Positions 5,363 through 48,827 of a stretch of 48,827 bases of DNA are shown here, piece by piece. Source of the stretch: Pseudovirgaria hyperparasitica (lineage: Eukaryota); NCBI GenBank assembly GCA_010093815.1, contig ML996590.1; one strand, given 5' to 3'. The notes under the pieces were generated by a model that saw nothing but the letters and a program-made list of their open reading frames with translations, was not told the origin of the DNA and searched no databases. The position numbers were made by a program, and so were the translations under genes. Position 1 is the stretch's first letter. Every line of letters starts with the position of its first letter.

Positions 5363-5456
<94 letters not shown>

Positions 5457-5466
5457 NNNNNNNNNN

Positions 5467-5561: not shown

Positions 5562-6130
5562 TAATATATAACTAGATAGAGTATTTCTCTATAGATATAT
5601 ATTATCTATAGATTTTTATCTAATACTTCTTATACTCTAGTAGACTAAACTAGTTAATTTAAAGTAATATAATAATTTATATATATTAAATAATAGAGTA
5701 TACTAAGTATAATAATAATATTATTATTATTATATAACTAGATAGAGTAGTACTCTATAGATCTATATCTTCTTTAGTCTAAGCTATTATATAAGAAGAA
5801 ACCCTAGAGAAAAACTTTCTTATATTAATAATTATATTCTATTAAACCTCTATTATATCTTAAGTATATAGTTATAGTATATGTCTATTAGTCTATAGTC
5901 TATATTATTATTATCTTTACCCTTAGATAGTATATATAGATATAGAGATTATTAGTTAAGGACTATTCTTAACTAATAATTAGAGTTCTTCTAAGGTTCT
6001 TCTAGTATATATTATAGTATATAGTAAGATAGTAGTATATTATATCTCTCTAGCTATATACTTTATACTATAAAGAAATATTAGAGATATCTCTCTTATA
6101 GAGATGGTATAGAAGTTCTATAATATCTAT
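5561..6130. mobile_element. Cluster of LINE fragments: short 3' end (-, ~5561-5600), 5' end (+, ~5625-5712), 3' fragment (-, ~5713-6130)
   Basis: Similarity to 8107-8690 (with an internal deletion) and to the reverse complement of 20664-20755. Confidence 0.75.
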
Positions 6131-12978: not shown

Positions 12979-13206
12979 TGTTAGGACTTAGCCTTAGGTA
13001 GGACTCGACCTGCACGTACCTTAGCTAACAGGGTTAGGAGGTGACGTGAAGGGCGGTAAACAGTCACGTGCTAGATAGATCGGCGTCCCTTTGTGTATAT
13101 ACTCTCGGATTCCTACCGAAAGGGTTCGGTAGTAATTCGTTCTGTAATAGAATACACCCCATTATTCCATCTGGCTACACTACTATCTAATAACCCTATT
13201 CTTACA
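12979..13206 (+). repeat. 5' LTR of Gypsy A
   Basis: Near-identical to 20134-20361, differing by transitions. Confidence 0.97.
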
Positions 13207-13240
13207 TTCGAATTACTACCCATATAGTACTATAGTCAAG

Positions 13241-14554
13241 ATGGTCTAACCAGAACTAAGAAGGTCGACACGATCCACTATAGGGACAAGTAACACTGCA
13301 TTAAACAACAGGGATCCTCCACAATCGGCATCAAATCCGGCCGTTCTTGATAGAGAAGTGGAGATATCCGACCGAATCACGGAACTTTCTAATGAGGAAA
13401 TAGTGGATACACTAAGCGACTTCCCACGATAGGAAGCTAGACAACGAGTCGTGGCAGAGCTACACGAGGAATCGCAACCATCAATCGCCGAACTATAGGA
13501 GCATATCGCCAATCAAGCCCGAGAGATATAAATCCTTAAAGAATAGACCGAACGTGCGAAACTCCTTATAAAACGACGAGAACTTAACGAGTCTCTTAAA
13601 AGACTACGCGGAACGACAGTAGGTAGACGACTTCCTACACCAATTCAGGCGGAATCAGTTCACCTACCATTAGAGTTACGACAATCCACCGTACACCCGG
13701 CCGCTTCGTTGCCGATTTACCCTGCTCCTTCCTTAGGTGTGCCGAAACCTAAAGATCCGACCATATTTATAGGGAAGAACCAAAAGGAGTGGAAAGATTG
13801 GAAGAGAGACTGCGAGAAGTACTTCCTCGACAACCCTATGCTCTTTTCTATCGAAGTATAACGTATTTCATTCGGAGAACGTTACTTAGGTTTATAATCC
13901 CACGATCAATAGGATAGACAGAAGGAAGTCAAGCCACTATCGGCGACAACCTAGGAACATTTAGCTATATTTATGCTAAATACCCTCGGAACTAACGGAG
14001 AACGCGAAAGAAAGGCACTATCTAAGTTAAGAAGCGTGGCACAACGACCGAACTAGACACCTACTTAACTACTATAATACCTATAAAACCTCTAGGATAA
14101 TATCCCTACACTATAGGAAAATATTCGCATATTCTAGTTTCGCGAAGCACTACTCCCGTTAATCCGCGAAAGATTAGGAATAGTATTATTAAGTTTTAAC
14201 CATCTACACGAATTAGAGGAGAAAGCTAATAAATACTACCGCATCCTTAAGGAACGCGGCTCTCTAGGTAAAACCGACGAACCCCACACGGGTTAGAAAC
14301 GAGGTCGATCGAATACGTTCGATCAAGAGCAACCTTACCGCGATTAACGCTAGAAGAGCGTAAATCGGGGTAGAAACGCGTCAAGAGGACACCAAAACAA
14401 TCGAGGCGGTGGTTCCCAACGCGGAAAAGGACAAGGCATAGGCTTAAATGTAACGCCTGTCGCAAAACAGCAGGACCATAGCGCACTTTATTACTATAAG
14501 TATAGAGAAAAGGGACATATTTCGCCTAACTACAAGAATCCGAAAAAAGAATAG
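13241..14554 (+). pseudogene. gag: gag of Gypsy A (RIP stop codons)
   Basis: ATG at 13241 is in frame with YYKYREKGHISPNY (de-RIPed CYKCGEKGHISPNC zinc knuckle) and the TAG at 14552-14554. Confidence 0.85.
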
Positions 14555-17500: not shown

Positions 17501-18312
17501 ATAAGCAAGATAACTAGGCAAGGTTAGTCTATGTCGCGGAATTCGCGTATAATAACAGCCGACATGCGTTAACCCACGTAAGTCCGTTCGAAGCAAACTT
17601 CGGTCGAAACCATAAAGCGCAGTTCATGGGAACTTAGTATAAATCAGAGTAGCCTAACGTCAAGGCGACGGAGATTATAATAGAACTGTTCCAAACGCAA
17701 AGAAGCGTTGCAAAGTTATTACAAGATGCTATAGATTATAGCAAATCGCACCATGATAAGGGCAGAAAGCCCATAATCTTTAATATTAGAGATAAAGTTT
17801 TACTAAATAGCAAAAATATTCGTAGTATCAGGCCGAAGAAGAAGCTTAACTACACGATGATAGGTCCATTTAAGGTTACTCGTGTAATCAATGACCAGGC
17901 GTATAAGTTAAAACTCCCTCCTACGTTAAAGATATATAATATATTCCACATTACGCTTCTCGAGCCATTCCATGCCTTATCGTTACTAGATCGTTCCGAA
18001 TAGACATTATATAAAGTAGTTACGTAAGGAGGTGCGGATATCTACGAAGTTAAGTAGATACTAGGCTAATAACGTGCCGAAGATGGCACGTGGCTATATA
18101 AAATTCGTTAGAAAGGGTATAATCCTAACGAAGATACTTGGGAACCCGTAATATACATTAGTAAAGCAGCGATATTAGCGTATAAGTAGCGATTAGCAAA
18201 GGAAGCCGCGGAATCATAGAGAATTATACTAAAGTACGGCGATTCGACGTTTTTTAGTATAGTTCGGCGCCGAGGACGGCCGCCTAAAAGGAAGAAGGTG
18301 AAAGAGATATAG
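14548..18312 (+). pseudogene. pol: pol of Gypsy A in the -1 frame: protease, RT, RNase H, integrase, chromodomain
   Basis: ALVDTS (protease, ~14692), [11 protein letters not shown] (~15398), VYLDN (YLDD, ~15709), TDAS (16201), integrase ORF remnant 17032-17358, chromodomain YEV..IL..YKIR*KGY...DTWEP at 18043-18147. Start, integrase, chromodomain and stop share one frame. Confidence 0.93.
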
Positions 18313-18667
18313 ATCTTTAAAACATTCCAAGGAATTAAGGAACTTCCTTAGAAAGTTTAAACTTAGAACTTTAAAAAATTAACTGAAAAAGAGACTTAGA
18401 AAAATGATTCACTAAGAGAAATGGACATCGAAAATCGGTGCCGATCGGTATAGATCGGTATAGATCACGAAAGAGATTAAAGAAGTTATTATTAAAGAAA
18501 GATGAAATTAAGGAAGCTGAAAGAAAATCCGAAGATCTATACAGATCTATATAAACTCGCACTAATCTATCTAGAAGAAGCAAGATCGCTTTAAAATTAA
18601 AACCAAAAAAACTAAAACGCCAGATAAAAGAGACATGTTAGCACCGATCGGTATAGATCCAAACCGA

Positions 18668-19649
18668 TTAAGTCGGAGCAGGAGTAGAAGTACTAATCAC
18701 CGCGATGGTTACATCTAATTCCTTCCGCTAGTTCTTGTTTAGTATAGTATAGAGCTTCATGACATAAGTCTCTAGCCTTTCGTTCCGACGCTATAAACTC
18801 TATATAGCGCGCCTTATAGCTATAAACTCCTCTATAGAAACCTACGGAGCGGCGGAACCCGGGACGGAGAGGGACGGACCGGCGCGGGCACGCTAAGAAT
18901 TATATAAATCAGCGAAAAGATTTAACGATCGGTATAGAACCATATACCGTTAGTGTAGAAACTTCCAGATCAGAGCTATCTTCCCTAAATTTACAGCTCT
19001 TTAGCACGCGCGAGGAAGGAACCTTGGCCTTTTTACTAGAACCTTTTCTAGGAATTTTAACATCGCCGGTATGTAGAAAGAAGTCCGAAGTGGTAGAGAT
19101 TTTAGCACTGTTATAGAGATTAATACATATTAGTAAGAATCTATGACGATTTAAGAAAAACGATGTTACCTAGTAATCGCGGTAATAACAGCTATAGTAG
19201 ATTCCGATAAACCCTTACGGATCTTATTAGAATCGTACTCCTAGGCGTAACCCTTACCTTAGGTATATAGCTCGTAGAAAGCCTTCTCTAAGGCGTTGCG
19301 ATCGGTGGTACCACGCTCCTTATCGGTAGGGGTCACTAGAGGCCTAGTAGTAATCTATACTAATATAAGTAAATCTACGTAAAGTTCTTTAAACTTGCTT
19401 AAATACCTATAAGCAATAACGCTTCTTAGTTATACAAGTGCCGTATATCATAGATTTAGCACCGCCGTGAGTAATGTATGATAGAAAGCGATAACCACAA
19501 TAATATATAGCTAGATTATTAGAGCCCGGCCTAGGTCGGGGCAGATCGATGGCTTTCGACATATCGGTAACGTATATAAGACAGGGATTATTCGAAGGCG
19601 CCTGTTTCCGCGCCGATTACTTTAGAGTATCGAGATTTCGGGAAACCAT
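18668..19649 (-). pseudogene. Putative antisense accessory ORF in the 3' region of Gypsy A
   Basis: ATG at 19649 (MVSRNLDTLKVIGAETGAF..), a Cys-containing segment (CGYR..GTCITKKRYC) and a helical C-terminal stretch (EEFIAIRRAI*SL*RRNERLETYVMKL) ending TAA at 18668. Internal stops seen are RIP-type. The span is not a multiple of 3, so an intron or indel is needed. Confidence 0.5.
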
Positions 19650-20133
19650 ATTACGATTATTATTAATTTATGCAGATTATTACGAATTATGTTATTACTA
19701 GCTAAGGACGGCACGAAAATTAGTAAATTACGTAAATCGCACTAAATAGTAGTAAATCTATATAAATCTATGTCTATAAGGATCGGGTAATATACCTAAT
19801 AATCTAAAAAACTCTATAAAGAGTTAAGAAGTTTTTTGAAGAAAGGAATATTTCTAAGAAAAGATTTTAATATAGGCAGTACCCGGGCTTACCTAATCAC
19901 ATTACGTGATACGCTAGGCCTAATTAGGTAATCTCACCTATATAAGAAGTTAAGATGGACAAAATCTAGTTTATTAGGAAAACGCTTGTGTGAATCTTAG
20001 ATCGGCGAATATCGGCAAGTATCTAAGACGAAGCGTGGAGAACGACTAAGGTCTTACGAGACTTAGGATAGGGATATAGGGATAGGTGATAATCTAGGTC
20101 GCTAAGGGCAGCTTCCTAGAGGGAAGGGATAAT

Positions 20134-20361
20134 TATTAGGACTTAGCCTTAGGCAGGACTCGACCTATACGTACCTTAGCTAATAGGGTCAGGAGGTGAC
20201 GTGAAGGGCGGTAAACAGTCACGTGCTAGACAGATCGGCGTCCCTTTATGTATATACTCTCGGATTCCTACCGAAAGGGTTCGGTAGTAATTCGTTCTAT
20301 GATAGAATACACCCCATTGTTCCATCTGGCTACACTACTATCCAATAACCCTATTCTTACA
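20134..20361 (+). repeat. 3' LTR of Gypsy A
   Basis: Matches 12979-13206 and is followed by TSD CTTAG. Confidence 0.97.
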
Positions 20362-23300
20362 CTTAGTTAGTTTCTATATTTTAGATAGGTATCTAGCTAT
20401 CTATATTAATATTACTATATAGCCGTTTCTACTGTACTAGTAGGGGTATATCCGGCGTCTACCGGGGTATTACGATACCTAAGGCCGCCATGGTTATTAA
20501 TTAAGGGTAGCCCTTAACTAATAAAAGGGGGTCGGCGTGTTAGCGTTTATTAGATATAGTCTATACTTATATTATCGGAGAGTCTTCGAGCGTATATATA
20601 TAGTATCTCTATACGTCGGTATCGTCGTGTATTATACGCTATACGTACGTATATATGTCGGAGGTTGTTATACTTAGTATACTCTATCGTTTGATGTATG
20701 TAAATCGCTGTTTTACCCCGAATTAACTAGTTTAGTCCGTTAGGGTGTGAGAAGTAAGTTTCTTCTAAGTTATCTTATAAGAGAGTATATATTCTATTCT
20801 AGATTATTCTAGATTATTCTAGATCTTATTAGCTAACTTTAGATCTAGTTACTCTACTCTAGTATATAGTTCTTCTTCTACTAGGCTCTAGTTAATTAGA
20901 TAGCTACTCTAGAGAATAAGGTATCTAACCTCTACTACTATATTATCTATCTAGATTAGTTAGTTTACTCTAAAGAGAAGAATAAGATAAAGAAGTAGCT
21001 CTATAGTTCTATTTACTAGGGTTTCTATATAGTATATATTAGCTCTATCTATCTAGTTTCTATCTATTTTAGTCCTTTTTAGACTATTTAGATATCTATC
21101 TATTAGTTTTCTAGTAATTTAATTCTTAACTTAATAATATTATATATACTCTTATTTATTCTATAACTATTAAATTCTAGGTTCTAATTTCCTTTAAGTT
21201 ACTTAAGTATAGGTATTATATATAAATTAGTTTATCTCTCTAAATTATATTAGAGCACCCGAACTAGTAGCCTAGTGGTTATTAGTTCGGGTACTCTAAC
21301 CTTTTATATTATATATCACGAGTTTAATTCCGTAGTAGGGTACCTTTTTAGTTTCTTAGTTCTATATTCTTCTTATATATAATAGTCTATATAAGTCTAT
21401 TCTAGACTTTTCTATATTATTCTATTATAATATATTATATTATATATCTATAATAGTTATTTATGTTTTCTTTATATTTAGTAACTATATATTACTTAAA
21501 TTATAGAGCTATGTTATAGAGTTTTCCTAGTATATATTTAAGATTTATAATTTAATACTTTATTCTCTATAGTATCTTTCTTCTTTTTATAATAGCTCTA
21601 ATAGTACTAGGTTTATAGTAGTAATGTATTATTCTATAACCTCTATTTATATATAGATATTACGGTACTTAAGATATATACTATAGGTTCCTAGGTATTC
21701 TTATTCTTAGTATAGTTCTTCTAGTAGATTTAATACTTCTAGATACTATTCTTATTAAGTCTATATTTAATAATATAGTCTACTTTATATATATCTAGTC
21801 TATCTTAGAGTATAATAGAGTATAATTATATATTTATATAATTATATATATTAGATTAAAACCTTTTAAGTAATAAGATATAGAATATATTATAGACTTT
21901 TATATCGTTTTCTAGGTTAAGCTTATAGACTCTTATACTAATATAATATTTAATTTAGAAGGAACTAGCTATTTTATAATTAAGCTTTTTATTTACTTAT
22001 AATATTTATATATTATAGATATTAAGAAGGACTTTATCTTTCTTCTTATATATTTAATCTTTAACTAATCTATTATAGTACTTTATATATAACTTATTTA
22101 CTTACTAGATTATTATATAATAGTTATATATAGTTTTAAAGATTTCAATTACTAGTTTCTATATATAGACGTTAATATCTATTATTTGGTTAAACTAGAC
22201 TATATAAGATTTAAAACCTATCCTTAGACTATATTCTAGGTTCGCCTAGAAGAGTATAATATCTATTATACTATAATAACTATTATTATATATAAATTCT
22301 ACTATACTTAGTAGAGAGGCCTAGTTATCTTATTTAAAATTATAGAATATATAAAGATAGGCCTTAAGTATTTAGTTCTATTATTCTATCTAACTATCTA
22401 TTTATAGATAGAATACTATTAATATATTTCTATTTATACTAGCTATTTTATAGAATAATATCTAGAATTTAGATATAAATATACTTCCTTAGTCTATAAT
22501 AATTCTTTTTAGTATACTATAGACCTTAATAATCTTATTCTAGAATACTTATACTAGTTCTTTTAATATAATTATCTTCTATATAGAGATATATCTAGAT
22601 ATCTTTATAAGTCTACCTATAATAATAAGAATTAAATTATAACTTATTCTAAGTATCTTACTTAGAGATAAGTTAACTATAAAATCTATAATAATATCTT
22701 TCTATATAAAGAAAGGGACTAGTAGAGGCTATAAATTCCTATATAGCTTATATCTAGGTATCTTTATTCTTTAATAAATTAGATAAGTAGCTATCTATTC
22801 TTTAATATACTTAGATATATCTTTCTAAAAGTAGTACTAATAAATTAAGCTTAGGGTATATATATATCTAAAATATTCTACTAGGTTAGTATTATAGTAT
22901 TAGCTTACTATATTAAATTATATATTATCTATTAGTATATTATACTTTCTATTATAGTAAAGTAAGCTATCTATAAAGGTCTACTTATAGTCTACTTTAG
23001 TCTATAATAATCTATCTTACTATATTTTATATAACTTTAAAACTATTAGATCTATCTTTTATAAATCTATAATTAATTAGATGAGGTCTACTTAATATAT
23101 ATACTAGATACTATCGCCCTCTCTAATAGCGCTAATAAATAGCTTACTAGAGACTTTAGTACTATATCTTTAGTTACTAGCTTTAGTCTTATAAATTTAA
23201 TTACTAGTATTAGTATTAGTATCTTACTAATTATTAGATAACTTATTATCTAATCTTATTCTTAAGAGTTAGGTCTATAGCTACTCTAGAATTCTATAGC

Positions 23301-26300
23301 TACTATAATTCTAGGCGCCTTCTTTATAGTTAGATCTTCTTAATATTCTATTAGCTAGATTTATACTTCTATATTAATAGTAGATTATATAGTAGAAATT
23401 TATAAGCTACTTAGTCTATTAAACCTATTAATAATTTAAAACTATTATACTTATAAACTCCTTTAAGTTATAGTAATTAGTTAGTAACTTAATATTATAT
23501 ATAGTATCTTTAAGATAATATTACTACTACTTAAATAACTCTACTATTACTAGTAGCTCTTAGTTATAAATAGTATATCTAGTCTTAAAATTATCTATCT
23601 TATATAAGAAGAATATAACTAGATACTATTAGATCTTTTTAGACTCTATTAGTCTAGACTAGAAGAGTATATCTAAGATTATAAATTCTAATATATTAGT
23701 TTTAATATAAATAGATTTAGTTAGATTAAAGTATACTAGTAATAGAGCGGTTATAAATATCTCTTTAATCTTCTTAAAGGATATTCTTTTAACCTCTATT
23801 AATTTAATAGATTATAACTTAATATTATACTATTTCTATCTACTATAGACTATAATAGATAAATTAGTAGTAGTAGTATATATATTAAGTAGTATAGCTA
23901 AATAGAAGAAGTATTTAATAAATTTTTAATAGTAGTTAGTAAAGCTAATAAAGATATATATATCTTAAATAGATTTTAGTTTAGGCTAGTCTATAATAGT
24001 AGTAACTCTATCTCTCTCTATAGTTATACCTTAGTTAATAATAATAAAGCTAAGGAAGTTAATATAGTTCTAATAGAACTTATATTTAGATAGCTTAATA
24101 TATATCTTATACTTTTCTAGTCTATCTAGAACTATATATATATACTAGATATACTTCTTCTTATTATCTAAGAAGATAAGAATATTATCTAGATATATAA
24201 TATATATTATATTAAGTAGATCTACTAGTAAATTATTAATATATACTTAAAAGGTATCTAGCGTGTTAGTTAATCTAAAAGAGACTATAGTATACTTTAA
24301 GTATCTATAATAGATTCTAAAGGCCGTTTTCTATTTATTACCCTTCTTAATATAAAGGCAATAGTAGATATTATATAGATTAAGCTTAGTAAAGATCTTT
24401 ATATATTCTAGTCTATTAATAGACTTAGAGATAAGAGGTAGTAGATAATAATTCTTCTATATAATATTATTTAGACTATAATAGTTAATATATAGATAGA
24501 GGCTTCTATTCTTCTTATTTATAATGAGAATTAGAGCTCTAGCTAGAGATATACTAGGTCTAATCTATTCTTATATAAGGTTCTTTTTAATATATTCTTA
24601 AAGGACTTATAATTTAGATTCTAAAAGAGGGTAGATAGATCTATATAGAGGTTACTAGCTATCTTTAAGATTAATAGTAAGATTAATAGATTAGTATTAA
24701 GGTAATTTAGAGGAATTAATTACTAATATAATATATTAGTATATTTAATACTAATATAGTAGATCTTTATCTACTTTAATACTAAGCTTACTATTTTAGA
24801 TAAGTAAGAGTATATAGATAGTAGAGATTATCTTCTTATAATCTTTCTAGAATTATTTATTAATAATAAGCTATACTAGTTTCTATTAAGATAGGTTTAT
24901 ATACTAGCTAGCTATCTTTTTAAGAAAGTCTAGTTTTAGATTATATTTCTTAAGCTATAGTATATCTAGAATTATATTAAAGGGACTATCTACTATAATA
25001 AAGGTTAAGTAGTAGAGTTTCTATTTTCCTCCGCTATCCTAGATACTATATTTAATAGTATAGGTACTATATAACTTAATAGAACTATTAATACTATAGA
25101 ATTTAGTATCTATTAGAGCTTAGATATTAATATTAAGTTCTTATACTTATTAGATTAATATAATATTAGTAGCTAAACTACTATTAAGTATTATAGTCTA
25201 ATATTATCTATAAGGGACCTTAATAGATCTAGTCTATAGTTTAATATACTATTTAGCGGATTATCTCTCTATTATAGTTACTTCTATAAGTTATAAGGGT
25301 TTCTTATAGACTATTAGTTTTTTATATTCTATACTAGATAGTTAGATATAATATATTCTAGCTACTAGTACTTATAATATATAACTAATTAGTTAGTTAT
25401 ATTAGTACTTAGTAGTTTTACTAAATAGTACTTAGATACTATATAGTCTATTCTACTATAGGTATAGTAAGTAACTTTAGGTTATTTATATAAGTTAGTC
25501 CTTATATCTTAATATATTAATTAGTAGAGAGATCTATAATATAATTCTTATAGTTTTAAATTTAAGGTATAGTAGTAACCTTATAACGTTCTATAAGATC
25601 TATTACTAAATTAGTTTTAGTTAGATAATTTTATATTAGATTAGATTATTAGAGATAGTTATATACTAGCACGGTATTAGTTATTTATTATATACTAGTA
25701 TTACTCTATAAGATTTATAAGAGCTTAGAGATCTATAGAGATTATTATTATAAGATTAAGATAGTTCTTTATATTTAGAGCGAGAGATTATTTAAAGTTA
25801 TTATATTATTAAATTATATAATCTTCTTTAGCTTCTCTCTAAAGAGGCTAAAGATATTTAAGAAGTTATAAGAGTAACTAATTATCTTATTATTAAGTCT
25901 TAAAGATATAGCCCTAGGCCTAGTTATATTATTTAGCTCTATTACTAAAATATTAGAGAAGAAATTTAGTAAATATATTCTAGTTATAGATATTCTTAGA
26001 ATATTTAATTTAGTATACTATCTAACGTTCTAAAGGAATTAGATTAAGATAGTTCTAGATAAATCTAATTTTATGACTATTATTTATAAATAGATAGAAG
26101 AATTAACTATATTAATAAGTATATATATAGAAACTCTTTCTACTTTTACTATTAAAGTAAGGTAGTTTCTTAGATTAGGGTAATTAATATAATAGTAGAC
26201 TAGAATAGACTATTTTAGTTAGTATAGATCTATATATATATAGATTAGTTATTACTAGAACTAAAGTATATAATATAGCTTTAAGTCTTATAGTATATCC

Positions 26301-26939: not shown

Positions 26940-29900
26940 TATTAAGATTATTAACACGTTAAGTTAAATTAGTTATAAAGTATACTATTTTCTATCTATG
27001 TATTTAGTTAGTTATATTTATATATCTAACTAGTTTACTACTACCTATAGTAATTATATATAATATATACTACTACTATAGCTATAATAAGATACTTAAA
27101 TTTAGAAAAACCTACTACTACTCTTAGTAGCCTTATATATAATACTTAGATAGATATAGATTTATATCTTTATAGATACTATATTATAGTTAACCTACTA
27201 CTAAACTAATATTAGGGGGTTCCTTAGTAGATATAATATACTTTATAGTCTCTTTAGAGTAACCTTATTACTTAGCTAGTAGTTTAGTAATATTAATATC
27301 TTAATTATTATTCTAGTTAACCTATAGTATCTTACTAGTAGATAGTATCCTAGTTAGTTTATATAAAGCTATTATAGTCTTACCTTATATACTATTTAAG
27401 CTATTATCTAGAAAAACTAGCTTTATAATCTTTTAGTATATCTTATAATATAATAGTCTATTTAGAAGTAGTTTAGTAAGATAAGGTTTATACTATTTAT
27501 AACTATAAGTAGCTATAGTAGCGTTCTTAAGTCTAAAGCTATAATAATAATAGATATTCTAGTAGTACTTAACCATTGACTTTAGTACTAACTCCTTAGT
27601 ATAGAGCTTATATTTAGTATTATAGGCCCGATTTAGGTATTTCTATATATACTTACTAATTTTATTATTAAATAATCTTATAGCGTATTTCCCGTACTTA
27701 TAAATTAACTTTATAGACTTAAGAAGGTTAACTACCTCCTCTAGAGGCCCTAGTTACTTAATTAGTATATCTATCTAGTATAATAATAATAATAATAATA
27801 ATAATATTATATAACTAGGTAGAGTAGTACTCTATAGGCCTATGCCTCCTCTAGTCTAAGCTACTATATAAGAAGAAACCCTATAGGGAAAAACTTCCTT
27901 ATATCTATAACTACATCTCATTAAACCTCTATTTCGTCTTAAGTATATAGCTATAGGGTACGCCTATTAGTCTATAGCCTATATTACCGTTATTTTACCC
28001 TTAGGTAGTACGTATAGGTGCGGAGGTTATTAGTTAAGGGCTGCCCTTAACTAATAATCGGGGTTCTCCTAGGGTTCTTCCGGTATATATCGGGTTACTA
28101 CCAGCGTATACCGGGTCTCTTCTAGTATATATTTCTAGGTCTACTAGTACTAGAGGAGTAGTAGATATATAAGTATCTATTAGGAGACGTCCTTAGGGTA
28201 CTTATTAAGCCATTATACGATATCTAAAGTCTTCGTAACATGAATAAGCTATTACCGTTATATATAGAGGTTAGGGTATATAGCTAGATAGTAGCGTATT
28301 ATACCTCTCCGGCTATATACCTTATACTATAGGGAGGTATCGGGAACGCCTCTCTTATAGATATAGTATAGGAGTCCTATAGCGCCCGTTCGGGCTTAGA
28401 TAAGTATAGANNNNNNNNNNNNNNNNNNNNNNNNNNNNNNNNNNNNNNNNNNNNNNNNNNNNNNNNNNNNNNNNNNNNNNNNNNNNNNNNNAGGTCTAGT
28501 AGGTATAGAGTGTCTCTTTCTACTTATCTTAAGTCCACGACCGTATATTTTTTATAAGTTCTTAAAGGCTCTACTAGTCTAGGAGAGCGTCTAGGTTATC
28601 TTAGACTTCTTATACTACTTAGCTAGAGTCGGCTTCTATTAAGCACCTATACTATATTTAATTCCGGCCTATATATAGAAGTGCGTGGTAATATATACTA
28701 ATTTATATACGTAGCGCGGCGAAAGTATATTCTACGTTTTCTATACGTTTCTATACTTTTTATTTAGTAAAGTATACTACCCTCTATATCTAGTAGAAGT
28801 TATATATACTTATAACATCTATCTCGCGTCGTAGTATTACCGTGTTAGTAGCTTTATATACGCCTAATATAAGACGGAGTATGCGGTTCTATATGGATTC
28901 GAGCTTTATTTACCTAGTCTATATAAGGGCCGTATACTAGTACTCGTGTCCGTATATAAAGGCGGGTCGTGCTATAGATATATATAGCTAGCGTGCCTTA
29001 TCCCGGGCGGTTCCCTATATAGAGGCTATAATCTATTATATAGCGGCTTCTACCTAGAGGGCCCTAGAGACGGCGTATACCACTTATAGTCCCTATTTAA
29101 GCTTGCTATCTAGTATAACTCCGAGCGTGCGCATGCTTTATACTAGTAGTTCGTTAAATACGTCGATTCGGGGGCGTCGTTCGCCTTCCCTAGTTACCTA
29201 TTTCCCTTAACGATTAATAAAGTATATAAGCTAGTATTTCTCCGGGGCGAACTTTATTCTATAGCGTTTTACCTACTAGAGGCACCTCTTATAGTCCTAT
29301 TCTAGTCGTCTATACGTTCGGTTAGTATTATTATTAATAGCTAGGAGGTATATATTATCGGCGTATCTAACTACCTCTATATACTTTATTCCTTAAAGAA
29401 GGTCTACTATAAAGAAGAGGAATAGAATCGGAGAGATAGTACTCCCTTATGGGATGCCGTATACCGTCTCTTTATATTTACTCTAGTATCTAGAGATATA
29501 TATCTAAGTTATTCTTCCTATAAGGAATGACTATATAAAGCGTATAATCCATTCTAGTATTTATCTTATCTGGAGGTTATAAATAAGTCTTATATGGTTT
29601 ACCTTATTAAACGCTCCGGCTATATCGAGGGAGAGGAGCGATACTATCCGTCCCTATTTCTATACGGCCTAGACGACTTTAATAATATATTAGATAGCTA
29701 TTATTAGGGAGCTATCTATCTTTACCTTCTAGTTCGGAGGGAGGAGATTATATTTCTATACTACGGTACTTATCTTCTTCGCTATCATAGCCTCTAGTAT
29801 CTTACCTAGGTAGAAGAGAAGGGTAATTAGTCTCTATCCCTTTAGGGAGTTAGCGCTCTTTTCTAGTTTCGGGAGTATAATAGTATAGGCGACTTAGAAG

Positions 29901-32900
29901 CTCTAGGGGTGGTACCCCTACGTAACGCATGCTTAGAATATATAAGTAATAAGCGGTAGGGTCGCTTTTATAGTACTTTTTAGGTATTAATTTAGAATTC
30001 TATCTAGTCCGGGTGCTTTATCATTTAGAAGTATCTTAATAATATTAAGTATATCCTTCTCTATAACTTCTTCGGGGATATCTACCGCGTATAGATATTC
30101 GGCGCCGTGAATATCTAATAGGTCTACTAGTTCCGGGAGAGGGAATATAGCCTCCCGTAGGGCCTTAGTTTTCTTAAGGCCTGTGGAGTATATTCTCCCC
30201 TAATATATTAGGGGAGGTATAAGTGGCGGGGGTATCGGAGTATCTACGCCCTTAGCCCATTTCGCTATACGCTATAGCCCTATTACGTGTTATATCTATT
30301 AACTAGTAATTATACGCTACTATTTACGCCTTTCGTTACGGAGGACTTTATCGCGTTATTATATCGCTTCCTTCTATTCTTTCTACGACTCGGGTGTCCT
30401 TATATAGTATACGCGTCTATATAGTCTTTAGGCGTCTTATCTACTTTCCTATACTTAAGGAATCCCCTTTACTTCCGGGGCCCGGTATATTTAGTATAGT
30501 ATATATTTATTTCTTATATTCTAGTATATTCATAGGAGTGTCTATACGGCCTAGTCTATGGCTAGGTCGTTAGATATATCGACTATAGAGGGATCTAGAA
30601 TCGCCGATTCTAGGTCCTTCAGGTACTTTTCCTAGTTAGTATCCTTCTATATCTATCGTCCCCGTTATTTATTCGGGGTATATATATTTATTATAGTTTC
30701 TATGCATTCGTGGTCGGAATCCGTCTATACCTGGCCTAGGCGGTAGTATTAGATCCGGTAACTAATGTGCTCCGTGGTAAAGGTAAGGTTAAGCGTGGAC
30801 CCGTCTTCGTCCTATTTATGTTTTTTCTATATAACTTATCCTATAGGTGTGAGTAGGTATAGGAAGTCGTGGTAGCGGGTGCTATCTATCTAGTATAAGT
30901 AATATTCTAGTTCCCTATAGTTAGCTAGAGAATAAGCTAACTTACTTAGAGTAGATAGAAGACCTAGATAGCTAACTAAATTAGACTACTTAGGCTTTTA
31001 TTAAAATAATTAAGATAATATTTTTAAGATAGTTAAGGATATCTTTAGAACTAGATAGAACTATACTATAGTAAAATTACTATTAATTTCTTTCTTATCT
31101 AATAAGATAATAAGTTATTTCTTTATAAGCTTAGATTAGATAATATAAGAGTCCTTCTTAATAGATAGTTTTTTAAAGATTAGACTTTCTATAACTACTC
31201 TATTAAGGCTCTATATCTTTTTAGTAATATTTACCTTCTACTAAAAATCCTAGAATAATATAATATATATATCTAGGTTACTCTTAACTTTAAAGGAGTC
31301 TTTAGTTATTAAAATAGTATACTTAAATATAGATTATTTATATCTATTTTTAACTATATTAATACCTTTATTACTAATAAGTTTATAAAGAGTTTTAGCT
31401 TACTTAAGAAGTATTATATATAGATTATTTCTAGTAGCTATTAGAACGGACGTTAAAAATTATACCTAGATAGCTACTATAGTTCTCTAGTTAATTATAT
31501 TTACCTTAATTAATAAGGTTATATTATATAGCTATTAGTAGATATTAGTAAGATAGATATTAGTCTAGATTAATTAGTTAATAATTCTTTTAACTATATT
31601 AAGATTATATATATATAGATATCTAATATAGTTACTTTTTTATTATCTAGCTAATCTTTCTATAGAATTATAATTAGATTAAATCTTTATATACTAGTTT
31701 TAAAATGAATTATATAACTTAATTTAGATATAAAAAGTAATAGATTACTAATATTTAGTACTAAGCTACCCGTGTTCGTTTACTATCTACTTAACTAACT
31801 ATATAGTAAGCTAAAGTCTAAATTATTAGTAGTAGTTATTAATATAAGTAATATAGTATATATATAACCTAATTATTAAGATTAGACTAAGATTAGATCG
31901 CCTACTATACTCTTTATAGTTAGTTATATAGTACTTATAATCTTTAATAGTTACTTAGCTAAGATACTACTATTATTATCTTTATATCTATATACTAGAT
32001 TAATATCTAAGGGTACTATCTAATTATAACGGTCGGTTTCGTTTACTATAAGTAGCTTATCTTTAATTATCTAGGGCTTAGAATAAGTCTTCTTTAGAAT
32101 CTACTAATAATATAGTAGTAATATTACTACTCTACTAAGTATAAATTAATTAAATATAATCACGACTTTATTATTTAAAATACTAGGAACTCTATATAGT
32201 AGATATTCTTTCTAAAACTATTCTTCTTTTAAGACGATAGCTAGCTAGTAGATACTAATCTTACTCTTTCTTATAATCTATTATTCTATTACTATAATAA
32301 TTAGTAACTTTACTTAGTTAGATAGCTAGATATTTATAGATAGCTAAGTTATATAGTTCTCTATAATATTAATAGAATAATCTATAAAAATAGCTATAAA
32401 TTATATTTTAATAGGTACTATTATTTAGTTATAGAGAAATTACCTAATACTAGTCTATTACTAGAGATCTATATAGATAGAGCTAATAATAAAGAGTATT
32501 CTACTACTATATATTCTAGAAGAATTAGTAGAAAAGCTTTTAATAGACCTAGAAAATTATTAGAATCTATCTAGTTAGCTATTATCTTATATAGAGCCGT
32601 ATATAATAGTTATATAGCTAGATTAATATTTATCTAAGTCTAAATTTTTGCCGTAGGCTAATAGTAGTACTTTTTATCTACCTTTAGTTATAGATATAGA
32701 AGGATATTAGTTAGTTTAGATTAAGTATAACTATTATATATCTACTAAATAAATATACTAGGTCTTATAAGGATAAAGCTAGTTATATATAATAATTAGT
32801 TAATATTATAGAATATTTATAGATTAGTAGCTATAAATAGTAGACTATATAGTTAGCTTAACTATAGTAATTATTTTTAGTTAATAGATTTAGATCTAGT

Positions 32901-39604: not shown

Positions 39605-40942
39605 ATCTAAGTACTAATAAGAGAAACTACTAAGTACTAATATAACTTACTAATTAGTTATATACTATAAGTACTAGTAGCTAGAATATATTATATCTAA
39701 CTATCTAGTATAGAATATAAAAAACTAATAGTCTATAAGAAACCCTTATAACTTATAGATATAACTATAATAGAGAGATAACTAACTAAATAGTATATAA
39801 AACTATAGGCTAGACCTATTAAGGTCTCTTATAGATAATATTAGACTATAATACTTAATAGTAGTTTAGCTACTAATATTATATTAATCTAATAAGTATA
39901 AGAACTTAATATTAATATCTAAGCTCTAATAGATACTAAATTCTATAGTATTAATAGTTCTATTAAGTTATATAGTACCTATACTATTAAATATAGTATC
40001 TAGGATAGCGGAGGAAAATAGAAACTCTACTACTTAACCTTTATTATAGTAGATAGTCCCTTTAATATAATTCTAGATATACTATAGCTTAAGAAATATA
40101 ATCTAAAACTAGACTTTCTTAAAAAGATAGCTAGCTAGTATATAAATCTACCTTAATAGAAACTAGTATAGCTTATTAATAATAAATAATTCTAGAAAGC
40201 TTATAAGAAGATAATCTTTACTATCTATATACTTTTACTTATCTAAAATAGTAAGCTTAGTATTAAAGTAGATAAAAACCCACTATATTAGTATAAAATA
40301 TACTAATATATTATATTAGTATAAAATATACTAATATATTATATTAGTAATTAATTTCTCTAAATTACCTTAATACTAATCTACTAATCTTACTATTAAT
40401 CTTAAAGATAGCTAGTAACCTCTATATAGATCTATCTACCCTCTTTTAGAATCTAAACTATAAGTTCTTTAAGAATATATTAAAAAGAACCTTATATAAG
40501 AATAGATTAGGTCTAGTATATCTCTAGCTAGTACTCTAATCCTCTTTATAAAGAAAAAAGATAGAAGTCTCTATCTATATATTAACTACTATAGTCTAAA
40601 TAAAATTATATAAGAGAATTACTATCTACTACCTCTTATCTTAGAGTCTATTAATAGACTAGAATATATAAAGATCTTTACTAAGCTTAATCTATATAAT
40701 ACTTACTACTATCTTTATATTAAGAAGGGTAATAAATAGAAAACGGCCTTTAGAATCTATTATAGATACTTTAAGTATATAGTAGTTTCTTTTAGACTAA
40801 CTAATGTACTAGAAACCTTCTAAGTATATATTAATAATATACTAGCTAGTCTACTTAATACGATATATATCGTAAACTTAGATAATAAGAAGAAGTATAT
40901 CTAGTACATATATATAGTTCTAGATAGACTAGAAAAGTATAA

Positions 40943-41883
40943 TAATAATAATAATATTAGTGTTTAACTAGGAAGAACTATATATATAGCCATATATATG
41001 CTCCACAGGCTCAGGCCTCCTCTAGTATTGGCTGCTATGTATATAAGAAAACCTCCTATGATTGGCTCCCTAACTAGACCCTATTACTAACCTAACCTGG
41101 CCTAGTCTAAGTCCTCGAATCCCATTGGGTGACAAACTTACTTCTTATCCTTATATTAGGCTTTTATTACTATATTAGTACCGGCTCTTAATAACGCCCT
41201 AACCAACTATAGTAGGTATTACCTTTCTTATGATTAGGTAGGTCGCTAGGCTAGGCCTAGTCTTTTATTCCTATGTTACCGTGTTTTTTTCTATCCATGG
41301 GAATATAGCTTTGCGCCGGGTAGTAGTCATTAATTAAGATAACTAATGCCGGAGGGGGTGTATATCTAATAGGTCCATGCCTTAGTACTAACCCCAGCTA
41401 GGCCGAATTCGGAAATTATTCTTCGGGGCTATATAATCGTCTATGGGTAGGCGGGATACTTAATTAGGTATTACCGTCTATTTCGTGGTTACCGAGCCGG
41501 AGTAAGCGCGAGCTAAGCCGGATTAGAGTGGATAAGGCCCCGGTATATAGTGAAAATTCTATGATTCGAGCTAAGCTAGTTATGGGTCTAGCCGCTCTAG
41601 GCGTCGCTCTACCACTTAAGGTGGCTTAGTAGGTGGCTATATTAGGTAATTCTTATTATGTAATGACGGTATAGTCATTTTTATATTACCTAATAGTCGC
41701 TTAGAACTAAGTAGTTATATAACGGTAACCTTCACGTCACGTGCTCGCTTAGCCCCGCATACTTTTTAATAGAGCGTGCGAAAACTAGTGTATGAAAAGG
41801 TAGCCGTTATAGGATTCGAACCCACGACGTTAGATAACAAACGCTTCTAGTAACGTAGTACACTACTACTACGCCACCTGGCC
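40943..41883 (-). mobile_element. tRNA-derived SINE-like element (~940 bp) with LINE-related 3' end
   Basis: 16-bp TSD gactagaaaagtataa at 40927-40942 and 41884-41899. 5' head at 41883-41801 has A box TGGCGTAGTAG and B box GGTTCGAATCC. (TAT)n tail. The 3' ~100 bp resemble the LINE 3' end. Confidence 0.85.
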
Positions 41884-44800
41884 GACTAGAAAAGTATAAA
41901 TTATATATTAAGCTATCTAAATATAAGTTCTATTAGAATTATATTAATTTCCTTAGCTTTATTATTACTAACTAAGGTATAATTATAGAGAAAGATAGAG
42001 TTACTACTATTATAGACTAGCCTAAACTAAAATCTATTTAAGATATATATATCTTTATTAGCTTTACTAACTACTATTAAAAATTTATTAAATACTTCTT
42101 CTATTAAGCCGTACTACTTAATATATATACTACTACTACTAATTTATCTATTATAGTCTATAGTAGATAGAAATAGTATAATATTAAGTTATAATCTATT
42201 AAATTAATAGAGGTTAAAAGAATATCCTTTAAGAAGATTAAAGAGGTATTTATAACTACTCTATTACTAGTATACTTTAATCTAACTAAATCTATTCACA
42301 TTAAAACTAATATATTAGAATTTATAATCTTAGATATACTCTTCTAGTCTAGACTAATAGAGTCTAAAAAGATCTAATAGTATCTAGTTATATTCTTCTT
42401 ATATAAGATAGCTAATTTTAAGACTAGATATACTATTTATAACTAAGAGCTACTAGTAATAGTAGAGTTATTTAAGTAGTAGTAATATTATCGTAAAGAT
42501 ACTATATATAATATTAAGTTACTAACTAATTACTATAACTTAAAGAGGTTTATAAGTATAATAGTTTTAAATTATTAATAGATTTAATAGACTAAGTAGC
42601 TTATAAATTTCTACTTTATAATCTACTATTAATCTAGAAGTATAAATCTAGCTAATAGTATATTAAGAAGATCTAACTATAAGGAAGGCGCCTAGAATTA
42701 TAGTAGCTATAGAGTTCTAGAGTAGCTATAGATCTAACTCTTAAGAATAAGATTAGATAATAAGTTATCTAATAATTAGTAAGATACTAATACTAATACT
42801 AGTAATTAAATTTATAAGACTAAAGCTAGTAACTAAAGATATAGTACTAAAGTCTCTAGTAAGCTATTTATTAGCGCTATTAGAGAGGATAATAGTATCT
42901 AGTATATATATTAAGTAGATCCTATCTAGTTATTTATAGATCTATAAAAGATAGATCTAATAGTTTTAAAGTTATATAAAATATAGTAAGATAGATTATT
43001 ATAGACTAAAGTAGACTATAAGTAGATCTTTATAGATAGCTTACTTTACTATAATAGAAAGTACTATATACTAATAGATAATATATAATTTACTATAGTT
43101 AGCTAATACTATAATACTAACCTAGTAGAATATTTTAGGTATATATATACCCTAAGCTTAATTTATTAGTACTATTTTTAGAAAGATATACCTAAGTATA
43201 TTAAAGAATATATAGCTACTTATCTCATTTATTAAAGAATAAAGATACCTAGATATAAGCTATATAGGAATTTATAGCCTCTACTAGTCCCTTTCTTTAT
43301 ATAGAAAGATATTATTATAGATTTTATAGTTAACTTATCTCTAAGTAAGATACTTAGAATAAGTTATAATTTAATTCTTATTATTATAGGTAGACTTATA
43401 AAGATATCTAGATATATCTCTATATAGAAGATAATTATATTAAAAGAACTAGTATAAGTATTCTAGAATAAGATTATTAAGGTCTATAGTATACTAAAAA
43501 GAATTATTATAGACTAAGGAAGTATATTTATATCTAAATTCTAGATATTATTCTATAAAATAGCTAGTATAAATAGAAATATATTAATAGTATTCTATCT
43601 ATAAATAGATAGTTAGATAGAATAATAGAACTAAATACTTAAGGCCTATCTTTATATATTCTATAATTTTAAATAAGATAACTAGGCCTCTCTACTAAGT
43701 ATAGTAGAATTTATATATAATAATAGTTATTATAGTATAATAGATATTATACTCTTCTAGGCGAACCTAGAATATAGTCTAAGGATAGGTTTTAAATCTT
43801 ATATAGTCTAGTTTAACCAAATAATAGATATTAACGTCTATATATAGAAACTAGTAATTGAAATCTTTAAAACTATATATAACTATTATATAATAATCTA
43901 GTAAGTAAATAAGTTATATATAAAGTACTATAATAGATTAGTTAAAGATTAAATATATAAGAAGAAAGATAAAGTCCTTCTTAATATCTATAATATATAA
44001 ATATTATAAGTAAATAAAAAGCTTAATTATAAAATAGCTAGTTCCTTCTAAATTAAATATTATATTAGTATAAGAGTCTATAAGCTTAACCTAGAAAACG
44101 ATATAAAAGTCTATAATATATTCTATATCTTATTACTTAAAAGGTTTTAATCTAATATATATAATTATATAAATATATAATTATACTCTATTATACTCTA
44201 AGATAGACTAGATATATATAAAGTAGACTATATTATTGAATATAGACTTAATAAGAATAGTATCTAGAAGTATTAAATCTACTAGAAGAACTATACTAAG
44301 AATAAGAATACCTAGAAATCTATAGTATATATCTGAAGTACTATAATATCTATATATAAATAGAGGTTATAGAATAATACGTTACTATTATAAACCTAGT
44401 ACTATTAGAGCTATTATAAAAAAAAGAAGAATACTATAGAGAATAAAGTATTAAATTATAAATCTTAAATATATACTAGGAAAACTCTATAAGATAGACC
44501 TATAATTTAAGTAATATATAGTTACTAAATATAAAGAAAATATAAATAACTATTATAGATATATAATATAATATATTATAATAGAATAATATAGAAAAGT
44601 CTAGAATAGACTAATATAGACTATTATATATAAGAAGAATATAGAACTAAGAATCTAAAAAGATACTCTACTATAGTCTTAAACTTATAATATATAATAT
44701 AAAAAGTTAGAGTATCTAAACTAATAACTACTAGACTACTAGTTCGGGTACTCTAATATAATTTAGAGAGATAAACTAATTTATATATAATACCTATACT

Positions 44801-47050
44801 TAAGTAACTTAAAGAAAATTAGAATCTAGAATTTAATAGTTATAAGATAAATAAGAGCGTATATAATGTTATTAAGTTAAGAATTAAATTACTAGAAAAC
44901 TAGTAAATAGATATAAATAGTCTAATAAGAACTATAATAGATAGAAACTAGATAAATAGAGCTAGTATATACTATATAGAAACCCTAATATATAGAGCTA
45001 TAGAGCTACTTCTCTATCTTATTACTACTCTTAGAATATAATAAATAAACTAACTAAGTAATAGAGTAGTAGAGGTCTAAGACCTTATTCTCTAGAGTAA
45101 CTATATACTTAGTTTAAGTCTAGTAAGATAATAACTAAGTACTAGAGTAGAGTAACTATGCCTAAAGTTAGCTAATATAGTCTAGAATAATCTAGAATAA
45201 AATATATACCTTCTTATAAGGTAACTTAGAAGAAGAAATAGTATATCTCTTATAAGATCTATTAATAGTATAAGATAGATAGAAGAGAATACTATAAATC
45301 TCTTCTATAGTCTTAGTAGCTAAAACTAACTCTCTTAAATAGATAATCTAAGTACTAGAAATCTTATAGTAACTAAATATTATAAGCTAAGATTAAGAGT
45401 AATTAATAGTTTCTAAACTTATACTTTAATAATCTCTAGAAAGAGCTTATAGCCCTCTCTAAACTCTCTATATATAGAGACTAGATAACTACTAGAACTA
45501 GTAAGAGTCTTATAGATATAAAGATTATTATATATATCTTATATATAAATAGAAATCTAAAAATATATTAGTATAGATAACTTTAGATTATTCTAGACTA
45601 AAATAGTCTAATAGACTTATCTAAAGATAAACTTTACTAAGAATAGTATAGTAGTAGTAGTAGTAGATAGATAGAGTAAGAATAGAGTATATAGAACTAT
45701 TAGAATTAGTAGAGTAATAACTAGTACTAGAATTAGAGTAAAAGAGATATTTAGAGTTAGTTATATAAGCCTTAATATACTTATAGTATATTAAACTATA
45801 GTTTACTATTTTTCTATAGTATAAACTATAACTATATTTAGTATCTTTAGTAATCTAGGTCTTATTATTAGTAGAGCTAGACTTAAAGTAAATAGTAAGA
45901 TTCTAAAAGAATCTAGAGTAACTAAGTTAGTCTATATTAGACTAAAAAGAGAAATAGTATTTAGAGTAGGGTAGTAATAGTATAAACTCTTAATTATTAT
46001 CTATAATAAGATCTTCTTTATTCTCTAAAGAAGATAGAGTAGATAGATAGTATAAGAAAGTAGAAGTAGACTTTATAGCTACTTCTTCTATAATACTAGT
46101 ACTAGAATTATCTAGATTAGAGTAACTAATAGCTACCTTAGTAGTAATAGTAGTAGTAGTCTTAGCTATCTTCTTCTCTAACTTAGAGTATATCTTTATA
46201 CTACTATAATAAGTAGACTTTTTAGCTAGTATAGCTAGAGTAGAGATAATCTCTTTAGAGTAAGTTTTATAAGAAAAGAAGATAGACTTAGAAATAGAAC
46301 TAGTATTAGATATCTATATATATATATATATTAGCTAAAGATCTAAGAATAGAATACTTATTTAGTCTTAAGAGTAATTAGAAGAGCTAAATTAATAACT
46401 ATAATAATATAAATAGATTATATAGAACTAGCTCTAATAAGAATAGACTACTCTAGATCTAAATAGATCTAAACTAAGAAAAATAGTATATAAATTAATA
46501 ACTTATCTTAAGAGTAAGATAGATATACTAAAGAAGAAAATTTAGAATAAGAGAACTAAATATAAGCTTAGATAATATAGTAGTTATATAATCTATAGAG
46601 CTATCTCTAAGGTAGTAGCTAGAAAGTAAGAGATAAGTATATATATAAGTTAATAAAAGTAAACTAGAGTTTTAAGTTTACTAATATAAAGACTATTAAT
46701 AATATTATATAGATTTAATTAGATATATATATAAATATAATACTTATAGAATTATAGATTTATATATAGTTAAGTACTTTAGAGCGAAGTATAAAAAGAA
46801 GAAGGATATTATTAGAACTAATACTAGAATAGACTTAACTAGACTACTATAGTCTAGTATAGTCCTATAATAGATAGATCTAGGTTAAGTTAGCTAGATT
46901 AAGTAAGGGTACTATATAAGTAGACTATATATACTTAATTCCTACTCTTTAGAAATTAACCTTATTATAAGAGTAGACTACCCTTTTAAATATATTCTTA
47001 AATCATTCTATAATCTATTAGACTACTATTCTACGTCTATAACTCTTATA

Positions 47051-48827
47051 GTTATATCTAATTATTATTTCTACCTTAATAGCTATAGTAGATCTATAGT
47101 ACTTTCTTTTATACTTATAACTTTCTTTACTAATATATTAGAATTCTAGATAGATTTAATTAAGTCTTTAAGGGTTTTCTTAGTTTCTTAGATATTTATT
47201 TAGATTACTTAATACCTACTCTAATTCCCACGGAGAATTACTAAAAGTATTCTAGCTTCTAGTATTCTATTAGATAACTAGTCTTATAGTATCTATAGTA
47301 TAGTATAGTCTAAATTATACTAACTATCTATATTATTCTATAATAATTTCTTATAATCTTTATACTATAATAGAGGATTAGCTTTATTCTCTCTTCTAGC
47401 TCTATATAAGATTTTAAAGTTAAATATTAATATCTACTTAGTCTAATATACTTATTAGTAATCAAGGACCTTAGTTAATATAAAGTAATATAGATTTATA
47501 TAATTTAATAATAATTTAATCTAATATATAGAACCTTCTAAATAATATTACTATTACTTAAAACTCTTAATAATTATAAGTAGTTTCTACTTATACATAT
47601 TATAATATATCTCTATATCTACTATTTTATAGAAAAAGAAGATAACTAGGTACTATTATACCTTATCTTTTATATTCTTATATAGTTAACTAATAATTCT
47701 AGTAATTATAAATCCTAATATATTAGTTTTAATCTAAATATACTTCTTAGAATTAAAATACCTAAGAATTAGTATAGTTATAAAGTAATTCTTTAATAAT
47801 TAGAATATATCTTATACTTCTAGTATTAACTATATCTTAACTAACTTAGCTTTATACTATACTTACCTATCTATAGAGATTTTACTACTATTCTTAGTAA
47901 GTTTATCAAGAGGTACTATAATTTATAAGAAGTCTATAATAAATTTATAATAATAGTTTATAAAATCTATAAACGTTCTAATTTAATATATAGTAGTAGA
48001 TTCTAGCTATTTTATAATAGTCTTTATATACTCTAGCTCTATTTTTAAACCGCTATATATTATAATAAAGCTAAGAAATCTAACTTCTTATTAATAGAAC
48101 TTATATTTAGATAACTTTATATAGAGTTTATACTATCTTAGATAATTTAGTACTAATTTTATATATTCTTTATAATTCTATATACTATTAGAGTAAATTA
48201 GTATATTATTAAGATAAACTATATAAATTATATTAAGTAATTCTATAAGTATAGTATTAATATATTCTTAAAACACTACTAGTATATTTATTAGCCTAAA
48301 TAGTATAATAGTATACTTAAAATAACTATATCTAGTCTAAAATATAGTTTTCTACTTATCTCTATAATAAATTTAAAGCTAGTAATATATATCTTATAAA
48401 TTTAGCTTTATAAAGTACTTTATCTTTATTAATTAGTCTAAAGATTTACTAACTAGTAGTAATAGATAATAATTCTTCTTAGTTACTATATTTAGTATCT
48501 AATAGTTAATATATAGATATAAACTTCTATCTTTCTTCTTTATAAAGAGAATAGATATACTAGCTAATAATATACTATAATATATCTAGTCTCTTCTAAG
48601 GTATTCTTTAATATATTTAGAAAGAACTTTAAGTTCTAGTCTTAAAAGTAGATAAAGTAGACTATAAGAAATATCTACTCCCTCTTTAAGCTTAATCTTT
48701 AGCTTATATAGTCTATAATTAGAGAGAAGTAATATATCTTCTACTAAAAATATATCTATATACTATAAATATATATTAGATAGCGTGTCTTTACTCTAAT
48801 TATTACTATTATTCTTATCTTTATTAA
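47051..48827 (-). mobile_element. Older, heavily RIP-mutated fragment of Gypsy family A (RT-RNase H region), running off the window
   Basis: Reverse complement aligns to ~15100-16878 (e.g. aaagacacgcta.c; ttaaagaatt.ctttataacta; cttaattaaatcta.ctagaattc). Confidence 0.9.

Follow-up and report, generated by a model that had tools for sequence, protein, structure and literature searches.

Fungal SINEs and their LINE partners

Well-documented pairs of a short interspersed element (SINE) and a partner long interspersed element (LINE) are few in fungi. By its described features, the closest precedent for the element treated here is AfuSINE2-1a of Aspergillus fumigatus together with the LINE I-1_AF. 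In passages of the source, this SINE is described as having a tRNA-Arg head, an (ACT)n tail and a target site duplication (TSD) of 14 bp, and its 3' terminus as resembling the untranslated region at the 3' end of the Tad-clade LINE I-1_AF / I-4_AO (PMC5063351). Here, we analyse a stretch of 48,827 nucleotides from contig ML996590.1 of Pseudovirgaria hyperparasitica, referred to as the window, and a 941-bp insertion that it carries on the minus strand. With a probability of roughly 0.8, this insertion is a non-autonomous non-LTR (LTR, long terminal repeat) retroposon, namely a copy of a multicopy tRNA-related SINE mobilised by a family of LINEs with an apurinic/apyrimidinic endonuclease (APE) and a reverse transcriptase (RT) in a Dothideomycete.

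As far as AfuSINE2-1a is described in those passages, the element shares with it a tRNA-related head with A and B boxes, a 3' end similar to that of a resident fungal LINE, a trinucleotide tail, which is (ACT)n there and (TTA)n here, and a TSD of comparable kind (14 bp there, 16 bp here). Unlike the AfuSINE2 families as described (140-493 bp, low copy number, tRNA-Arg), the element is 941 bp long, apparently present in many copies and mutated by repeat-induced point mutation (RIP). The same source presents Foxy of Fusarium oxysporum (about 160 copies) and, from Magnaporthe, Mg-SINE (472 bp, about 100 copies) (PMC5063351); by description, these likewise are SINEs that derive from tRNAs and reach a moderate copy number in their filamentous ascomycete hosts, but they are shorter. 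The size class of 0.7 to 0.9 kb is represented there by two elements of powdery mildew, EGH24-1 (900 bp) and Egr1 (700 bp), and by mgsr1 (800 bp) of Magnaporthe, all of them non-coding and dispersed as described (PMC5063351). Since mgsr1, Egr1 and EGH24 reach 700-900 bp, a fungal 'SINE' of 0.94 kb is long yet precedented. A first-pass annotation of the window had inferred a possibly undescribed, unusually long fungal SINE family. Unlike the situation here, the powdery mildew hosts of EGH24-1 and Egr1 are described as being without RIP (PMC10648671).

In stringent SINE/LINE pairs, the RT of the LINE recognises its own 3' tail (PMC4176376 and PMC3747384). As in the pairs described there, a 3' region and an identical terminal repeat are common to SINE and LINE in the window; unlike in those pairs, no significant conserved 3' stem-loop is predicted. 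Keyword searches of the open-access literature turned up no SINE from a Dothideomycete, which is not proof of absence. For one RIP-affected Dothideomycete genome rich in Tad1 LINEs, main-text passages name SINEs only in general terms (PMC12910237).

A discrete insertion with an empty paralogous site

On its sense strand, the element opens with GGCCAGGTGGCGTAGTAG and closes with (TTA)n. Its GC content is about 40-41%, versus about 21% in the flanks. Self-comparison of the window reveals that the DNA hosting it is a duplicated, RIP-mutated repeat: positions 20760-24122 correspond to 45234-41884 at 95.6% identity, and 24107-25437 to 40942-39605 at 90.9%. The 16-mer TTATACTTTTCTAGTC, which borders the element on both sides, is present once in this inverted paralogue, where both flanks are contiguous. 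The 941 bp therefore entered as one discrete insertion, with duplication of a 16-bp target, as had been proposed from the exact 16-bp TSD, and chance is no reasonable alternative. Except for the TSD, no terminal inverted or long direct repeats were found in the element.

The insertion is non-coding. None of its stop-to-stop frames reaches 150 amino acids, and a Pfam search in six frames gave no credible match, the single row being an ORF29-like one (E=0.018) below its cut-off. The first-pass observation that a long open reading frame is missing is thus borne out. The body, between the head and the LINE-like 3' region, was compared as four 190-nt pieces with everything else in the window, on either strand, by transition-tolerant local alignment and against dinucleotide shuffles. 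Even with transitions tolerated, the scores were at or below those of the shuffles. The first-pass annotation had envisaged that the body might align to a LINE reading frame, in which case the element could have been a truncated LINE or a one-off chimera; no such alignment is seen in the window.

The duplication just mentioned is part of a segmental duplication of RIP-mutated repeat DNA that is large and inverted, with 91-96% identity between 6244-25437 and 47065-39605. A LINE with a nested, probable LTR element (8092-20759) is found in one arm and the SINE in the other, so that for either insertion the opposite arm provides the empty site.

The presumed partner LINE and the shared insertion signature

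Two TSD-bounded copies of the presumed partner LINE lie in the window, along with two older fragments of its 3' end. Copy 1 is split by a nested element at 12981-20361. The paralogous repeat lacks copy 1 and has its empty site at 45211-45234; the TSD of this copy is about 17 bp (TTATAAGATAACTTAGA, sense strand). If 171 stops are read through, 8085-12978 on the minus strand is a single frame, which holds the endonuclease-type motif GDFN, the RT motifs LDIAGAFN and YANN (YADD being expected before RIP) and a Pfam match to RVT_1 (E=1.3e-8). A database search with residues 540-1260 of this frame found seven proteins, the best of which is a partial hypothetical protein named for Podosphaera aphanis (E=1e-55, with 27% identical residues across 97% of the query). 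RVT_1 is present in all seven, together with Exo_endo_phos and/or Exo_endo_phos_2, the latter in six of them. RNase H was not detected by Pfam in the RIP-degraded copy 1; among the homologues, it occurs in two (the distant P0007 and P0010) and is absent from the best one, P0004, which is partial. Because GDFN and RVT_1 lie in one frame and the homologues have endonuclease and RT domains, the presumed partner, termed Tad1-like in the first-pass annotation, is shown to be a non-LTR retrotransposon of the APE-endonuclease plus RT type.

The last 100 nucleotides or so of the element align with all four LINE 3' ends of the window, at 8092(-), 27783(-), 1532(+) and 5697(-), the order in which the following values are given. 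With the microsatellite left out and 300 shuffles for each end, plain local alignment gave z scores of 3.6, 7.3, 3.0 and 1.9, which were reached by 2, 0, 3 and 14 shuffles. A transition-tolerant score, which takes RIP into account, gave z scores of 5.4, 6.0, 4.8 and 4.7, and none of the 300 shuffles reached it for any of the four ends. Of the 83 positions aligned with the best LINE copy, 59 show the same base; the remainder comprises 11 transversions, 10 transitions with A/T in the LINE and 3 in the reverse direction. Counting transitions as matches, 72-74 of the 83 aligned nucleotides agree between tail and LINE. Both the SINE and the LINE ends run through CCTAGTTA and a few bases into (TTA)n, a microsatellite common to all four LINE 3' ends. 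The resemblance between the two 3' ends that had been noted in the first-pass annotation thus exceeds chance without any contribution of the microsatellite, and the tail written there as (TAT)n is present as (TTA)n.

The integration sites also agree. The TSD of the SINE is 16 bp and starts from TTATAC; those of the two LINE copies are 16 and about 17 bp and start from TTATAC/TTATAA. All five elements have a (TTA)n run that passes in phase into TTATA at the 3' junction, a pattern that agrees with a TTATA-type target priming through its annealing to a (UUA)n RNA tail. In a single window, the SINE lies beside two copies of its presumed partner LINE that are bounded by TSDs, and both the SINE and one of these LINE copies have an empty site there as well. 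This side-by-side occurrence makes the evidence that the two share an insertion mechanism unusually direct.

Two observations concern the surroundings of the LINE sequences. A microsatellite of about 200 bp (5361-5558), with the TTA/TAA unit found in the LINE and SINE tails, lies beside the old LINE fragment at 5697-6012. The 7.4-kb element nested in copy 1 has direct terminal repeats of 226 bp (12981-13206 and 20136-20361; 95% identical) and is probably an LTR retrotransposon; it is less RIP-mutated, with an index (defined below) of 0.57, and an internal piece of it recurs at 47068-48809 with 75.7% identity.

Other copies and the imprint of RIP

The window contains a single copy of the element, and a RIP-aware search of it for older, degraded SINE copies found none. 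Four public sequencing runs of one organism contain the element as Logan contigs: X1 and X2, from sample S1 of study P1, and X3 and X4, from sample S2 of study P2. Their contigs were aligned at a likeness of at least 80% to positions 40400-42400. For the 34 variable sites listed in the element, the other letter is carried by 0 to 17 contigs of X1; 3 sites have none or one differing contig, and about a third have ten or more, as exemplified by 17 contigs at 41682 and 14 at 41705. Since many contigs carry the other letter at single sites, several distinct variants of the element must exist.

Furthermore, copies at other loci can be recognised by a change of flank. A 5354-bp contig of X3 and a 3131-bp contig of X4 cover 40968-41885 with 35 and 33 differences, respectively, and one 1-nt insertion, and then go on for at least 255 nt, from ATGCGGGTGTATAG, into a flank that is unlike that of the window and richer in GC. 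They represent a full-length copy at another locus, the 5' boundary of which is within 2 nt of that of the window copy. In record 5 of X1 (3878 bp) and record 15 of X2 (1303 bp), the terminal 105 nt match p1-105 (p denotes the position in the element, counted from its 5' end on the sense strand) with 12 differences, and the sequence before them is unlike that of the window. They mark another locus whose 5' boundary is the same, so that at least two loci beyond the window copy share this boundary, across two samples from two studies. Lone occurrence, or copies without a common tRNA-like head, had been named as findings that would speak against a SINE family; instead, many variant contigs are present in X1 and X2, and the contigs from both samples switch flank exactly where the head starts. 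No empty-site joint across the element was reported in the contigs of the four runs. Scans of metagenome contigs with an exact 27-mer and with a RIP-tolerant 50-nt IUPAC pattern gave no matches in either case.

The differences between the copies bear, judged from their type and context, the signature of RIP. In X1, they comprise 31 A>G, 34 T>C, 14 C>T and 19 G>A, next to 4 A>T and 1 T>A. A CpA/TpA context is found at 30 of the 34 listed sites, with the A/T state in the window copy at 19 of them and in other copies at 11. This pattern fits the (CpA+TpG)/(ApC+GpT) index of the window copy, which is 0.50, compared to 1.09 in genes, 0.15-0.20 in the LINE copies and 0.03 in the flanks. Hence, the element is not free of RIP and has been mutated since its insertion. 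RIP acts only on repeated DNA, so that its imprint on the element is an independent argument that the element was repeated.

In sample S2 (X3 and X4), the contig with the full-length SINE copy, in GC-richer sequence, is alone in matching the 2-kb stretch. The abundant RIP-mutated repeats of the flanks are not represented in these runs, and the library may have been prepared from RNA or enriched.

The tRNA-related head

The A box TGGCGTAGTAG at p8-18 agrees with the consensus TRGCNNAGTGG at 10 of 11 positions, the odd one being a G-to-A change, and starts at the equivalent of tRNA position 8. The B box GGTTCGAATCC at p62-72 is the sole exact match in the window to the B-box consensus GGTTCGANNCC, for which 7 matches with at most one mismatch are present against 1.26 expected. 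The starts of the two boxes are 54 nt apart, and both are kept in sequence and spacing despite RIP. The T-arm GTGGG/CCTAT is followed by 7 nt, A and CC; there is a partial acceptor stem, in which GGCC, at the very start of the head, is paired with GGCT. The minimum free energy fold is predicted to be cloverleaf-like with three hairpins (-28.1 kcal/mol, z=-2.1; 9 of 200 shuffles are as stable). Writing the G/C variants of other contigs into the head (five changes from one other copy, then two more from other contigs) firms up the closing stem and the T-stem, with a predicted energy of -31.7 kcal/mol.

Two further properties of this region may be recorded. The acceptor-like end of the head, p73-87, pairs with p152-166 of the body in a 15-nt inverted repeat (41718-41732 / 41797-41811) that is 87% complementary. 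The lack of runs of five or more T in the element was considered as an indication of RNA polymerase III (Pol III) transcription and rejected, since 704 of 2000 shuffles also lack them.

A possible route of mobilisation

On the favoured reading as a SINE with a LINE partner, Pol III would transcribe the element from its head. The RT of the LINE would then recognise the shared 3' region and the (UUA)n tail of this transcript, as the similarity of the 3' ends suggests. The endonuclease of the LINE may nick a TTATA-type target able to anneal to the tail, to be followed by target-primed reverse transcription, and a second nick about 16 nt away would give rise to the 16-bp TSD that is observed around the insertion and once at its empty site. 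The copy in the window was inserted after the duplication and heavy RIP of the host repeat, and RIP has since affected it too, to a lesser degree. None of this alters the concept of how SINEs are mobilised, as the mechanism is the established one.

Several observations weigh against this reading. The length of 941 bp exceeds that of most SINEs, which is usually about 100-600 bp. In the predicted fold of the head, the first hairpin is 12 bp long and the second has an 8-nt loop, so that no anticodon or tRNA species is assignable. ARAGORN (default, with introns allowed, and relaxed) finds no acceptable tRNA in the head of the window copy and none either in the head with the G/C variants written in; a poor 89-nt 'Ser(act)' call on the window copy at -ps90 was rejected. 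The best Rfam match of the head is tRNA-Sec at 18.8 bits, with a gathering threshold of 47 (E=1 over 4227 families). Four runs of four T are present on the sense strand, and the two right after the head (p86 and p100) could terminate Pol III. The 3' ends have no significant predicted structure or conserved stem-loop (z from -0.14 to +1.36 versus shuffles). TTATA is common in RIP-mutated DNA, so that the equal length of the TSDs is stronger evidence than the target motif. As for the other copies, 2461 pieces of X1 and 1118 of X2 were placed on the 2-kb stretch, but summed contig depth does not equal copy number, and the loci were compared at their 5' boundary, since the microsatellite was skipped and 3' boundaries and TSDs are unreadable. 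By its sequence, then, the head is tRNA-related with promoter-like boxes and contains no recognisable tRNA. From the earlier proposal of a tRNA head with Pol III boxes, the quoted strings, the A and B boxes, the T-arm and the acceptor-like ends are retained, and the tRNA itself, as judged by ARAGORN and Rfam, is not.

The failure of the tRNA detectors, the T runs just past the head and a length unusual for Pol III transcripts would all agree with a different origin. The element could be a LINE-mobilised retroposon not driven by Pol III, its head being a fossil, such as a captured tRNA or tRNA pseudogene, and its RNA stemming from Pol II or read-through transcription, as in SVA-like or processed-pseudogene-like elements. 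From such transcription, variable starts are expected. Instead, at least three loci have a 5' end that differs by no more than 2 nt and falls on position +1 of a tRNA, 7 nt ahead of the A box, and the boxes themselves have withstood RIP. We regard this explanation as improbable, although it is the likeliest of the rivals.

A derivation from the LINE itself, by internal deletion or by recombination at the 5' end, would deprive the element of its status as an independent SINE. The LINE-like 3' 100 nt and tail would follow directly, and copy 1 of the LINE might be 5'-truncated. However, copy 1 is bounded by its TSD at both ends, and head and body are unlike it even under transition-tolerant scoring. 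The best match of the head elsewhere in the window, in an LTR at 13107-13176, is unconvincing (50.5 versus a shuffle maximum of 49). Such a derivation is very unlikely.

Least probable of all, and hardly to be expected, is membership of another class, whether of DNA transposons, such as a miniature inverted-repeat transposable element, of solo LTRs or of those non-autonomous LTR elements of the Helenus/Ajax type that bear a tRNA: tRNA-like sequences are described in LTRs of some non-autonomous LTR elements (PMC10886601), but the element has neither terminal inverted nor long direct repeats, its TSD measures 16 bp and not 2-10 bp, and it ends in a microsatellite tail behind a LINE-like 3' end.

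Implications for RIP-proficient genomes

If the element is a SINE of the kind proposed, its family would be a ready marker with which strains could be typed and activity dated with respect to RIP, and with which one might ask whether short retroposons partly escape RIP. In this respect, it is tempting, though speculative, to go one step further and to imagine an undescribed, unusually long (0.94 kb) tRNA-related SINE family, recently active in a RIP-proficient Dothideomycete and paired in the stringent manner with a LINE whose tail is (TTA)n and which has the TTATA-type target and the TSDs of 16-17 bp in common with it. Being just under about 1 kb, its members might be less exposed to RIP than their 5-kb partner. 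Were this true, the lesser exposure would enable a parasite of a parasite to survive and to spread into GC-rich DNA that bears genes, the latter being suggested by the copy from the second sample (X3 and X4).

Features of the window

Table 1. Coordinates of the SINE-like element, the LINE sequences and the genes in the window.
Feature	Position	Strand	Remarks
Whole SINE-like element	40943-41883	minus	941 bp; limits from TSD and empty-site paralogue
5' TSD copy	41884-41899	minus	16 bp, TTATACTTTTCTAGTC (sense strand)
tRNA-related head, p1-85	41799-41883	minus	A box, B box, T-arm, 4-bp closing stem GGCC/GGCT
Unique non-coding body, p86-845	41039-41798	minus	unlike rest of window; without Pfam match
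LINE-like 3' region, about 102 nt	40964-41065	minus	19-nt AT-rich insertion versus LINE ends; terminal CCTAGTTA box
(TTA)n microsatellite tail	40943-40963	minus	in phase with TTATA start of TSD
3' TSD copy	40927-40942	minus	16 bp, TTATACTTTTCTAGTC
Empty paralogous target site	24107-24122	plus	in inverted duplicate of host repeat
LINE copy 1, 3' part	8092-12980	minus	RIP-degraded; (TTA)n tail at 8092; GDFN motif; RVT_1 around 9495-10155
LINE copy 1, 5' part	20362-20759	minus	inferred from duplicate alignment and TSD
LINE copy 2	27783-30882	minus	5'-truncated; 91-94% identical to copy 1
LINE copy 2 TSD	second copy 30883-30898		exact 16 bp, TTATACTAGATAGATA
Older LINE 3'-end fragment	1204-1532	plus	with (TTA)n tail
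Older LINE 3'-end fragment	5697-6012	minus	with (TTA)n tail
PEX10	2708-3811	plus	closest named relative Glonium stellatum, 69% identity
Proteasome beta-type subunit exon	3985-4608	minus	name judged by eye from translation

A GC-rich gene island (about 50% GC) is situated at 2600-4608 between RIP-mutated blocks. The other named matches of its PEX10 gene are mostly from Dothideomycetes, with a few from lichen-forming fungi, so that the host probably belongs to the Dothideomycetes and has no close named relative among these matches. Near the centre of the large inverted duplication, an inverted repeat pair of 0.58 kb is found, with 25433-26008 and 26939-26359 being 95% identical.

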